Source of the DNA: Escherichia phage JB01
Length of the DNA: 39,355 nucleotides
Sequence record: MW074885
Strand: one strand, 5' to 3'
Of the stretch, positions 32,098 through 34,917 are shown piece by piece. The notes under the pieces were generated by a model that searched no databases, was not told the DNA's origin, and saw only the letters and a list, made by a program, of their open reading frames with translations. Position 1 is the stretch's first letter, and every line of letters starts with the position of its first letter. The translations under genes were made by a program, and so were the position numbers.

Positions 32098-32126
32098 TTG
32101 ACTTTAAGTCTAACCTATAGGATACT
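32098..32126 (+). promoter_or_regulatory. host sigma70 early promoter A1
   Basis: -35 TTGACT (32098-32103), 17-nt spacer, -10 GATACT (32121-32126). Confidence 0.8.
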
Positions 32127-32223
32127 TTGAGCCATCGAGAGGGACACGGTGAATAGCCATCCTAATCGACACCGGGTCAAACGGTTAAGTAGACAGCCTG
32201 ATAAGTCGTATGAAAAACAGGTA

Positions 32224-32253
32224 TTGACAACATGAAGTAACATGAAGTAAGAT
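32224..32253 (+). promoter_or_regulatory. host sigma70 early promoter A2
   Basis: -35 TTGACA (32224-32229), 18-nt spacer, -10 TAAGAT (32248-32253). Confidence 0.75.
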
Positions 32254-32334
32254 ACACAACGTAGCGTCAACCACTGACACGGTGTCTTCTAGGTGACTTA
32301 AGCGCACCACGGCACATAAAGTGAAACAAAACGG

Positions 32335-32363
32335 TTGACAACATGAAGTAAACACGGTACGAT
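32335..32363 (+). promoter_or_regulatory. host sigma70 early promoter A3
   Basis: -35 TTGACA (32335-32340), 17-nt spacer, -10 TACGAT (32358-32363). Confidence 0.75.
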
Positions 32364-32469
32364 GTACCACATGAAACGACAGTGAGTCACCACACTGAAA
32401 GGTGATGCGGTCTAACGAAACCTGACCAAAGACGCTCTTTAACAATCTGGTAAATAGCTCTTGAGTGCA

Positions 32470-32520
32470 TAGATAGTGGATAACTCAAGGGTATCGCAAG
32501 GTGCCCTTTATGATATTCAC
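32470..32520 (+). promoter_or_regulatory. RNase III-type processing site, copy 1 (R0.3-like)
   Basis: gataactcaagggtatcgcaaggtgccctttatgatattcac; core at 32483-32508 repeated at 32837-32862. Confidence 0.5.
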
Positions 32521-32545
32521 TTAACTACTAAAGGAATCACACACA

Positions 32546-32830
32546 ATGCGCTTAAGTAAAGAGACAGCAATAGCTATGCGTCAAGCAATCAAATCCAGAG
32601 CAGCTCACAACGTGGGAGGTCTTGGGGATGTTGTACGGACGTATAAAGCTAAAGGTCTAACATTCCGCCGCTTTATGTGGGACTGTTTCCACGCTGTAGG
32701 CTTTAACGAGACAACCCGAATAATCGCTGAGCATAACACGGTGACAGTGATTGGAGGGCATATAACAGATGTGAACGATGCACACATTGAGACAATGCTC
32801 AAGGTTGCACTTAAAGACTTGAAATATTAG
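32546..32830 (+). CDS. hypothetical early protein upstream of ocr (no T7 counterpart)
   Basis: 94-aa ORF, ATG at 32546; first gene after A1-A3; flanked by duplicated processing-site element; no family recognised. Confidence 0.7.
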   Translation: MRLSKETAIAMRQAIKSRAAHNVGGLGDVVRTYKAKGLTFRRFMWDCFHAVGFNETTRIIAEHNTVTVIGGHITDVNDAHIETMLKVALKDLKY

Positions 32831-32876
32831 TGATAAACTCAAGGGTATCGCAAGGTGCCCTTCATGATTATCATTG
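32826..32876 (+). promoter_or_regulatory. RNase III-type processing site, copy 2 (R0.3-like)
   Basis: gtgataaactcaagggtatcgcaaggtgcccttcatgattatcat; near-identical to copy 1. Confidence 0.5.
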
Positions 32877-32903
32877 ATTAACAACACTATGAGGTGACAC
32901 AAG

Positions 32904-33254
32904 ATGGCTATGTCTAACATGACTTACAACAACGTTTTCGACCACGCTTACGAAATGCTGAAAGAAAACATCCGTTATGATGACATCCGCGACACTGATG
33001 ACCTGCATGATGCTATTCACATGGCTGCCGATAATGCAGTTCCGCACTACTACGCTGACATCTTTAGCGTAATGGCAAGCGAGGGCATTGACCTTGAGTT
33101 CGAAGACTCTGGTCTTATGCCGGACACCAAGGACGTAATCCGCATCCTGCAAGCTCGCATCTATGAGCAACTCACGATTGACCTCTGGGAAGACGCTGAG
33201 GACTTACTGAACGAGTACCTTGAGGAAGTCGAGGAAGAGGAAGAGGAATTATAA
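32904..33254 (+). CDS. ocr: gp0.3 Ocr DNA-mimic anti-restriction protein
   Basis: 116 aa [27 protein letters not shown]..., highly acidic with [10 protein letters not shown] tail. Confidence 0.93.
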
Positions 33255-33256
33255 TC

Positions 33257-33397
33257 ATGGTCAAGTATGGTCTAACAAAAGAGATGATTCAGACGTACCG
33301 CGTAGCGATGGCTTATGGTGCTTCTTTCGGGTACTGCATGGCACAATTAGCACAGACATATCGAGCACGCAAAGCGATGTACGGTAATAGTAAGTGA
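33257..33397 (+). CDS. gp0.4-like small early protein (possible FtsZ inhibitor homolog)
   Basis: 46-aa ORF directly after ocr; weak resemblance to T7 gp0.4 (..GYCMAQLAQTY..); below the ORF-track cutoff. Confidence 0.5.
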   Translation: MVKYGLTKEMIQTYRVAMAYGASFGYCMAQLAQTYRARKAMYGNSK

Positions 33398-33445
33398 TAG
33401 ACTCAAGGTCGCTCCTAGCGAGTGGCCTTTATGATTATCATTCTA
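33398..33445 (+). promoter_or_regulatory. RNase III-type processing hairpin (R0.5-like)
   Basis: actcaaggtcgctcctagcgagtggcctttatgat: inverted repeat cgctc/gagcg with the shared flanks. Confidence 0.45.
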
Positions 33446-33459
33446 TGAGGATTAAACGC

Positions 33460-33630
33460 ATGACGACTGGAATCATTATGGCAACCTTTGCAGTAATCGT
33501 AGCTATGGGATGGCGTAGCGCTGCGTTGGAGCGCTCAAAGTTCCTTAAGCAACGTGATGCACTGCTCGCTAAGTTGGACGCTGAGGGGCGCGGTAAGGAA
33601 GCTCTGGAGGCAATAAAGTGCTATCGCTAA
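33460..33630 (+). CDS. 0.5: gp0.5-like small membrane protein
   Basis: 56 aa from ATG at 33460 (MTTGIIMATFAVIVAMGW...); ORF-track start at 33394 lies inside the hairpin. Confidence 0.65.
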   Translation: MTTGIIMATFAVIVAMGWRSAALERSKFLKQRDALLAKLDAEGRGKEALEAIKCYR

Positions 33631-33815
33631 TTATCATCACTGGTTACGCTCTAATCCTATACGTGTTCCTTAGAGACTTCCGCAAGGGTATAAAGGTCCA
33701 CAAAGCAACGCTAAGTTACTTTAAATACGGATTCCTACCACGGTTTACGGTACGTGAGCACAACGGGCGCTTTAAGGCGAACAAAGTAGGCATCTTTTAC
33801 GTAGCAACTAATTAA
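33618..33815 (+). CDS. hypothetical small membrane protein at the gene 0.6 position
   Basis: 65 aa, GTG start with ggagg SD; N-terminal TM segment [17 protein letters not shown]; not like T7 0.6 as I recall it. Confidence 0.5.
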
Positions 33816-33837: not shown

Positions 33838-34917
33838 GTGAACATCACCGACATCATGAACGCTATCGACGCAATCAAAGCACTGCCAATCTGTGAACTC
33901 GACAAGCGTCAAGGTATGCTTATCGACTTACTGGTCGAGATGGTCAATAGTGAAACATGCGATGGCGAGTTAACCGAACTAAATCAGGCACTTGAATATC
34001 AAGATTGGTGGACTACCTTGAAGTTCCTAACGGCTGACGCAGGGTTCGAGATGCTCGGTAATGGTCACTTCTCTGCTGCTTACAGTCACCCGCTGCTACC
34101 TAACAGAGTGATTAAGGTTGGCTTTAAGAAAGAGGACTCAGGCGCTGCGTATACTGCATTCTGCCGCATGTATCAAGGTCGTGCCGGTATTCCTAACATC
34201 TACGATGTACAGCGCCACGCTGGATGTTATACGGTGGTACTCGATGCACTGAATGATTGTGAGCGTTACGACAACGATGAGCATTATAAGTATGCTGAGA
34301 TTGCAAGCGACATCATTGACTTCAAATCAGATGTGCACGATGGGTTGACTGGGTGGGATGGTGAGTTCGTCGAGACTTGCAAACTAATCCGCAAGTTCTT
34401 TGAGGGTATCGCTTCATTCGACATGCACAGCGGTAACATTATGTTCTCAAATGGGGACGTACCGTACATTACCGACCCAGTGTCATTCTCGCAGAAGAAA
34501 GACGGCGGTGCATTCAGTATTGACCCTGAGGAACTCATCAAGGAAGTCGAGGAAGTCGCACGACAGAAAGAAATTGACCGCGCTAAGGAACGTAAAGCAC
34601 GCCACGAGTGGCGCTTAGAGGCACGAAGAATGAAACGCCGGAACCGCAAGGCGCGTAAAGCTCACAAAGCAAAGCACGAGAGAATGCTTGCTGCGTGGCG
34701 CTGGGATGAACGTCAAGAACGACGTAACCATGAGGTAGCTGTAGATGTGTTAGGAAGGACTAATAACGCTATGCTCTGGGTCAACATGTTCGTTAAGGAC
34801 TTTAAGGCGCTTGAGGAACGAATTGCAGCACACTGGCGCTGCGCTGACAGGATGGCTATTGCTAACGGTCATGCCCTCAACATCGATAAGCAACTTGACG
34901 CAATGCTAATGGGCTGA
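33838..34917 (+). CDS. 0.7: gp0.7 serine/threonine protein kinase / host transcription shutoff
   Basis: 359 aa, GTG start; [26 protein letters not shown]..., as T7 gp0.7. Confidence 0.95.

Follow-up and report, generated by a model that had tools for sequence, protein, structure and literature searches.

Described counterparts of the small early genes analysed here include proteins of phage T7, whose gp0.4 was reportedly found by Kiro et al. in 2013 to inhibit FtsZ polymerisation, and whose gp0.6A is said to inhibit MreB, a result of Molshanski-Mor et al. in 2014 as cited in a later preprint. With these we compared the block of three small open reading frames (ORFs) at positions 33257-33815, on the plus strand, of Escherichia phage JB01 (sequence record MW074885). 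The window is the whole stretch of DNA analysed, 39,355 bp in length, and it represents a complete, circularly permuted, T7-like genome. The block is a class I accessory cassette region, that is, one transcribed by the host RNA polymerase, in a Teseptimavirus related to 13a and N30. ORF1, ORF2 and ORF3 lie between ocr and the 0.7 protein kinase gene, where a sequence-only reading had placed them and where the ORF map and the Pfam labels of both neighbours confirm them. The explanation that we favour, and consider probable, is that the block is a mosaic of cassettes in which ORF1 is a 13a-type gp0.4 acting on FtsZ, ORF2 a membrane protein of the phrog_25811 family, and ORF3 a membrane-anchored gp0.6A of the T3 type. 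Each of the three genes is an already catalogued variant and not a new one, and the mosaic arrangement is also seen elsewhere.

All three ORFs are genes and not chance ORFs. Their coordinates and lengths agree with those first read from the letters: ORF1 occupies 33257..33397 (46 aa, ATG start), ORF2 33460..33630 (56 aa, ATG start) and ORF3 33618..33815 (65 aa, GTG start). The ATG of ORF1 lies 2 nt past the ocr stop codon, a layout as in T7. ORF2 is preceded by the Shine-Dalgarno sequence GAGGA (33447-33451), 8 nt ahead of its ATG, and ORF3, whose start overlaps the stop of ORF2 by 13 nt, by GGAGG (33606-33610), 7 nt ahead of its GTG. Precomputed gene calls and Pfam labels were taken from the source contig, the Logan assembly contig SRR12949985_22; the same three genes are called there and on 8 similar contigs. 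PHROG hidden Markov models (HMMs) matched every one of them (ORF1, E 6e-21; ORF2, E 4e-7; ORF3, E 6e-28), and homologues were found in 360, 47 and 783 phage records, respectively. The ratio of nonsynonymous to synonymous substitution rates (dN/dS) was 0.07-0.11 for ORF1, about 0.15 for ORF3 and 0.55 for ORF2. Pfam and NCBIfam scans of the three proteins returned nothing significant, with a scanned Pfam set that did not contain PF26807.

The likeness of ORF1 to T7 gp0.4, described as loose in the sequence-only reading, proved to be true homology. In hhalign, ORF1 and T7 gp0.4 aligned without gaps over 42 columns at 33% identity, with a probability of 89.5% and E 2e-6, and in a Smith-Waterman alignment the score was 64, compared with 20±4 for shuffled sequences, none of 5000 shuffles reaching 64. 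The best PHROG for ORF1 was phrog_5058 and the second was the T7 gp0.4 family, phrog_7202 (E 2.5e-6); reciprocally, T7 gp0.4 matched phrog_5058. On the source contig, the ORF1 gene itself carries the precomputed Pfam label PF26807 (Phage_T7_GP04). The protein is 95% identical to gp0.4 of 13a and 89% identical to the homologue in the Teetrevirus RPN15. Records with members of its family come mostly from Klebsiella phages, and the invariant residues of the family include F24, M28, L31 and Y35. AlphaFold2 modelled ORF1 as two helices, residues 8-19 and 24-42, with a turn at YGAS, at low confidence (predicted local distance difference test, pLDDT, 64). This model agrees with the description of T7 gp0.4 as a pair of antiparallel helices (PMC13423816).

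ORF1 thus shares with T7 gp0.4 its place after ocr, a similar length, two predicted helices and the Pfam family Phage_T7_GP04. Both proteins also have an N-terminal YGLT motif, and they agree in the M, L and Y of the FtsZ interface. ORF1 differs from T7 gp0.4 in two thirds of the aligned positions, in being basic (isoelectric point, pI, 9.8) and not acidic (pI 4.7), in having F in place of W28, in belonging to PHROG 5058 and not to 7202, and in having all six CapRel-facing residues replaced. To 13a gp0.4 and to the phrog_5058 proteins of Przondovirus and K1F it is essentially alike, with a C-terminus one residue longer. On sequence grounds, ORF1 represents the 13a allele of gp0.4, genuinely homologous to the T7 protein though divergent from it, and is predicted to be a helical-hairpin inhibitor of FtsZ. 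A short likeness was also seen in RPN15, where the 0.6B-type extension of T3-like phages (2043-2213) contains YAMVYGAS, resembling VAMAYGAS of ORF1; this extension belongs to a separate family, phrog_10380, with no cross-hit between the PHROGs, so the likeness may be due to chance.

The functional surfaces of T7 gp0.4 have been mapped in detail by Zhang et al. (2026), who found that V15A, V22A, W28A/L, M32A, L35A/P and Y39A make the protein non-toxic, with FtsZ binding directly shown to be lost in W28L and L35P, and that A12K, T14S, L16A, S19A, R23A and K36A keep FtsZ inhibition but lose activation of CapRel(Ebc), a defence protein triggered by T7 gp0.4 (PMC13423816). We carried this residue map over to ORF1 through the ungapped alignment at 33% identity. 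The FtsZ-facing residues V15, V22, W28, M32, L35 and Y39 of T7 correspond to I11, M18, F24, M28, L31 and Y35 of ORF1, three of them identical and three conservative replacements. In contrast, none of the six CapRel(Ebc)-facing residues A12, T14, L16, S19, R23 and K36 is retained, the corresponding residues of ORF1 being K8, M10, Q12, R15, A19 and A32, and three of the six changes (A12K, R23A and K36A) are exactly the published non-activating substitutions. From this pattern, with FtsZ-facing positions identical or conservatively replaced and CapRel-facing positions all changed, we infer that the ORF1 allele would still inhibit FtsZ and that it probably fails to set off the defence by CapRel(Ebc). 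The two-helix hairpin of ORF1 would bind monomeric FtsZ and block assembly of the Z-ring, as T7 gp0.4 does.

A parallel case is found in phage K1F, which has been reported to lack gene 0.4 and yet to cause mislocalisation of FtsZ and filamentation of the cells, the responsible factor not being named there (PMC9372555). Right after gene 0.3 of K1F, at 907-1056, we observed a 49-aa member of phrog_5058 (E 1.2e-24) at the 0.4 position, which has the YGL, G, M, Y and K columns in common with T7 gp0.4. This protein is an obvious candidate for the FtsZ-perturbing factor of K1F and, by analogy, the K1F case gives indirect support to an FtsZ-directed role of ORF1.

If these predictions hold, the gp0.4 alleles offer a testable natural experiment on effector-triggered immunity, as the FtsZ-facing positions are identical or conservatively replaced and those facing CapRel(Ebc) are all changed. 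Bas64 and Bas65 carry the T7 gp0.4 allele and are restricted by CapRel(Ebc), whereas the phage of the window and 13a carry the changed allele. The hypothesis of an allele that may still inhibit FtsZ while evading CapRel is, in our opinion, the most useful product of this analysis.

The sequence-only reading had also proposed a loose likeness of ORF2 to T7 gp0.5, and this likeness dissolved on alignment. The score of 24 was reached by 516 of 2000 shuffles and the two proteins fall into different PHROGs (phrog_25811 for ORF2 and phrog_16572 for gp0.5), which rules out ORF2 as a gp0.5 homologue. The two proteins have in common only position and hydrophobicity. ORF2 is likewise small and hydrophobic and is translated just past the R0.5 RNase III site, but T7 gp0.5 is hydrophobic almost throughout, whereas ORF2 consists of one N-terminal transmembrane (TM) segment and a charged helical tail. 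The maximum Kyte-Doolittle mean over 15 residues was 2.11 in ORF2 (residues 3-17) and 2.55 in ORF3 (residues 4-18), followed in each protein by a basic tail (pI 9.7 and 10.4, respectively); hydropathy therefore bore out the N-terminal hydrophobic segments of both, and for ORF3, where a TM segment and a basic tail had been read from the sequence beforehand, the AlphaFold2 model agrees in having an N-terminal helix.

The match of ORF2 to phrog_25811 covers residues 5-53, and gp3 of the Citrobacter phage SH2 belongs to the same family (E 1.6e-39). Close relatives of ORF2, at 84-93% identity, were found only in a few T7-like phages of E. coli and in metagenomic contigs. Two motifs are invariant in the alignment of the family, GW and LDAEGRGxEAxExxK, the latter lying in the charged helical tail. 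SH2 gp3 and RPN15 gp032 are of the same length class as ORF2, have the N-terminal TM segment and both motifs, and are encoded, like ORF2, directly upstream of the 0.6A gene or overlapping it. They differ from ORF2 in sequence (about 38% identity), ORF2 and its close relatives forming a distinct subgroup of E. coli Teseptimavirus. Longer forms of ORF2 used by some annotators, one of 78 aa from a GTG at 33394 and one of 61 aa from an ATG at 33445, are disfavoured because neither start has a Shine-Dalgarno sequence, unlike the start at 33460, and because both are located within the RNase III hairpin or directly behind it.

A small hydrophobic protein is also encoded directly upstream of a gene of the gp0.6A family in three genera, with sequences that vary and are apparently unrelated: in K1F at 1124-1291 (55 aa, phrog_7319), in CR8 at 1193-1297 (34 aa) and in SH2 at 1219-1377 (52 aa). 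The arrangement parallels that of gp0.5 upstream of gp0.6 in T7.

ORF3 had been read from the letters as unlike T7 gp0.6 and as a replacement at the 0.6 position. The unlikeness is real, since the alignment score of 28 was reached by 118 of 2000 shuffles, no PHROG is shared, and no high identity to T7 gp0.6 appeared on alignment; a diverged T7 gp0.6 is thereby ruled out. The replacement is, however, not a novel one. ORF3 is 66% identical (43/65) to gp0.6A of phiYeO3-12, which is in phrog_2385 (E 2e-28) as is ORF3 itself, 97% identical to Bas103_0010 and 46% identical to K1F gp0.6. By homology it is a member of the common and already catalogued gp0.6A family of T3 and phiYeO3-12. As a whole, then, the earlier interpretation stood where it likened ORF1 to gp0.4 and set ORF3 apart from T7 gp0.6, and fell where it likened ORF2 to gp0.5 and took ORF3 for something new.

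Four T7-like phages of E. coli carry a protein of the ORF3 family at 95-99% identity, and the family extends across phages of Klebsiella, Escherichia, Salmonella and other hosts. In spite of its many records it is narrow: an exhaustive profile search of 1.84 billion representatives yielded 12 clusters at 50% identity, with lengths of 93 aa at most, and no obvious cellular relative that would hint at a function. AlphaFold2 gave a model of ORF3 with a pLDDT of 89, consisting of a helix (residues 2-27), three strands (31-36, 40-46 and 52-57) and a C-terminal helix (59-64). The top match of this model in BFVD was the 0.6B protein of phiYeO3-12 (TM-score 0.98), and no solved structural relative was found. 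The family alignment contains 22 invariant columns, mostly in the C-terminal domain, all of which are present in ORF3. Purifying selection is concentrated in the same domain (dN/dS 0.11), and the TM segment varies while keeping its hydrophobicity. The last codon of ORF3 (33813) encodes N where H is conserved at 90% or more in the family, a change of CAT to AAT.

ORF3 aligns over its full length with gp0.6A of T3 and phiYeO3-12, K1F gp0.6 and CR8 gp0.71, and shares with them the N-terminal TM helix, the C-terminal motif and the place in the early operon. It differs from T3 and phiYeO3-12 in standing in a T7-type and not a T3-type backbone, and in the absence of the 0.6B product, which is annotated in phiYeO3-12 and arises when translation shifts by +1 and continues into an extension, about 157 nt long, that lies downstream; there is no such extension here because just 22 nt separate ORF3 from 0.7. 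The extension is likewise absent in SH2 and Bas103, and it is an optional feature of the locus, not a feature of the protein family. With T7 gp0.6A, ORF3 shares the slot between 0.5 and 0.7 and the character of a small basic early protein, but there is no detectable sequence similarity and the PHROGs are different (phrog_8393 for T7 gp0.6A). T7 gp0.6A has no hydrophobic segment, its maximum Kyte-Doolittle mean being 0.41, so its predicted architecture differs from the TM helix and beta-sheet of ORF3. Given its unrelated fold and its predicted membrane anchor, ORF3 may plausibly act on another host target than T7 gp0.6 does.

The block has a clear mosaic structure relative to T7. Around it, homology to T7 is confined to 32400-32526, 32836-33247, 33393-33440 and the sequence from 33839 onward. 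The third of these intervals coincides with an RNase III-type processing hairpin at 33393..33442 (plus strand), the equivalent of T7 R0.5, recognised from its identity to T7 and its fold: 33393-33440 is 100% identical to T7, and both flanks are unrelated to T7. The hairpin folds as a stem, an internal loop and a second stem (-19.4 kcal/mol, z -2.3), and for the homologous site the phiYeO3-12 annotation gives a putative RNase III site. This pattern indicates that the 0.4 allele and the 0.5/0.6 module were replaced between conserved RNase III hairpins, and we propose that the block was assembled by recombination from alleles circulating across the Studiervirinae, the RNase III hairpins serving as conserved junctions. 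The overlapping ORF2 and ORF3 belong, together with the kinase gene, to a single segment delimited by RNase III sites. In RPN15, a Teetrevirus with a T3-type backbone, ocr, a 13a-type 0.4, an ORF2-like gene, 0.6A and 0.7 follow each other in the same order as here.

The exchange of single genes within the block is best seen in Bas65, whose backbone is nearly identical to those of Bas64, Bas103 and the window, and in which the ORF2 homologue is followed by a T7-type gp0.6A. Since a T7-type 0.6 stands there after the same ORF2, the 0.6 genes of T7 type and T3 type are cassettes that replace one another in backbones that hardly differ. At the junction in Bas65 (JacobBurckhardt), at about 1125-1180, the first codons of a T3-type 0.6 gene (…LSLIIIT) pass into the last codons of T7 gene 0.5 (…GIIKGALRK) and these into the T7-type 0.6A, the crossover being located in similar ATTATCATC stretches. 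An obligatory pair of ORF2 and ORF3 is ruled out by the pairing of ORF2 with a T7-type 0.6 in Bas65 and by the presence of 0.6A without ORF2 in phiYeO3-12 and Przondovirus. Phage 13a is a deletion derivative of the layout seen in the window, from which the C-terminus of ORF2, ORF3 and most of 0.7 are gone. Its annotated 44-aa 'gp0.7' (13a 1703-1837, corresponding to 33460-33523 and 34834-34917 of the window) consists of the first 19 residues of the ORF2 homologue fused to C-terminal residues of the kinase; as a deletion fusion, it leaves 13a without ORF3 and without a functional 0.7.

We propose that ORF2 and ORF3 insert in the inner membrane with the N-terminus out and the C-terminus in, as the positive-inside rule predicts, and that the conserved basic beta-domain of ORF3, at the cytoplasmic face, would bind a conserved, membrane-proximal target of enterobacteria; nothing indicates that this target is MreB. 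Several points weigh against this account of the block and of its inferred roles. The main uncertainty is that W28, essential in T7 gp0.4 (W28L and W28A are inactive), is F in ORF1, so that ORF1 may not have kept the ability to bind FtsZ. Confidence in the ORF1 model is low, as given above, and the escape from CapRel leans on an alignment at 33% identity and on the predicted ternary complex of the cited paper. Constraint on ORF2 is relatively relaxed, with 8 nonsynonymous and 3 synonymous codon changes relative to Bas103, and its occurrence without ORF3 in Bas65 means that a dedicated ORF2-ORF3 complex is not required. A literature search found no paper on T3-type gp0.6A or phrog_25811, nor on the function of gene 0.45/0.6. 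No sequences of the ORF1, ORF2 and ORF3 families were present in the supplements of an accessory-gene screen.

It is somewhat unlikely, in our judgement, that ORF1 derives from gp0.4 but no longer inhibits FtsZ, having another target or none. The replacement of the essential W28, the changes at V15 and V22, the identity of just 33% to T7 gp0.4 and the reversal of net charge (pI 9.8 versus 4.7) would all fit such a loss. However, ORF1 has the T7 residue at the positions of M32, L35 and Y39, its family does not vary at F24, purifying selection on ORF1 is strong, and K1F, with a phrog_5058 member and without a T7-type 0.4, still disturbs FtsZ. It is extremely improbable that any of the three ORFs is a reading frame open by chance or a gene in decay. 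The ORFs are very short (46-65 aa), ORF3 begins with GTG, and ORF2 has a high ratio of nonsynonymous to synonymous changes relative to Bas103, but all three have family-level HMM matches, tens to hundreds of full-length homologues, appropriate Shine-Dalgarno sites and conserved motifs, and for ORF1 and ORF3 the idea is contradicted by dN/dS values far below 1.

For ORF3, a role as functional analogue of T7 gp0.6, inhibiting MreB or the elongasome from a membrane anchor where MreB acts, is suggested by its position in the same slot, immediately upstream of 0.7, and by the interchange of T7-type and T3-type 0.6 genes in the near-identical backbones of Bas65 on the one hand and Bas64, Bas103 and the window on the other. 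In addition, T7 gp0.6 targets MreB, and unrelated phage proteins converge on the Mre system (bioRxiv 10.64898/2026.09.14.751387). We regard this role as quite unlikely because the two proteins have no sequence similarity, with different PHROGs and a score within the range of the shuffles, because a TM helix with a beta-sheet is set against a protein that has no hydrophobic segment, and because a common hotspot position does not imply a common target. It is similarly improbable that ORF2 and ORF3 have their role at the envelope, directed against other phages or host defences and not against the growth machinery of the host, for example in superinfection exclusion, in blocking DNA entry or in neutralising membrane-acting abortive-infection effectors. 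Both are early, small, single-pass membrane proteins adjoining the known counter-defence genes ocr and 0.7, ORF2 is fast-evolving, and in K1F, CR8 and SH2 the gene right before that of the 0.6A family encodes a small hydrophobic protein. Nevertheless, neither protein has homology to known exclusion or anti-defence proteins, Pfam and NCBIfam giving nothing significant, their motifs are absent from the supplements of the accessory-gene screen, and the cytoplasmic domain of ORF3 is highly conserved across hosts, more in keeping with a housekeeping target that is itself conserved than with defence systems, which vary.

Going beyond the cassette mosaic that we favour, one may suppose that T3-type gp0.6A, anchored in the membrane, inhibits a machine of the host's envelope or cytoskeleton and can functionally stand in for T7 gp0.6, a soluble and unrelated inhibitor of MreB, and that, in parallel, the 13a-type gp0.4 is a selected allele that has kept FtsZ inhibition and escaped sensing by CapRel(Ebc). 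Taken jointly, we hold these two propositions to be unlikely; if they were true, two convergent cassettes would compete for one 0.6 slot. The uncharacterised T3-type gp0.6A, with its 783 records, is much more widespread than the studied T7 gp0.6, with which it swaps as a cassette. It is a well-conserved early membrane protein that lacks a solved structural relative.

The surroundings of the block are those of a T7-like early region, and positions 1-24000 of the window are about 94% identical to Escherichia phage N30. A scan for hexamers detected three sigma-70 early promoters on the plus strand at 32098..32363 (TTGACT/GATACT, TTGACA/TAAGAT and TTGACA/TACGAT), the equivalents of A1, A2 and A3 of T7; the promoter region is 94.6% identical to the A3/R0.3 region of T7. 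These promoters would drive the early operon that contains ORF1, ORF2 and ORF3. The left edge of the block is formed by ocr (gene 0.3; 32904..33254, plus strand), a 116-aa ORF that carries the Pfam label PF08684 on the source contig and is 92% identical to T7 at the nucleotide level. At the right edge lies the T7-type 0.7 protein kinase gene (33838..34917, plus strand), a 359-aa ORF with the Pfam label Phage_T7_kinase and 90% nucleotide identity to T7 from 33839 on. It begins with GTG, a start also seen in Bas103, and is followed by the RNA polymerase gene from 34992. Upstream of ocr, a 94-aa gene (32546-32830) of phrog_9817 is flanked by two RNase III hairpins of the R0.3 type (32475-32521 and 32826-32878) and looks like a cassette inserted relative to T7. 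Its homologues were found in 61 phage records with a best identity of 88%, the closest being in phages of Klebsiella, Yersinia, Shigella, Pantoea and Serratia, and in phage 13a the slot upstream of ocr holds a different, 0.45-like gene.

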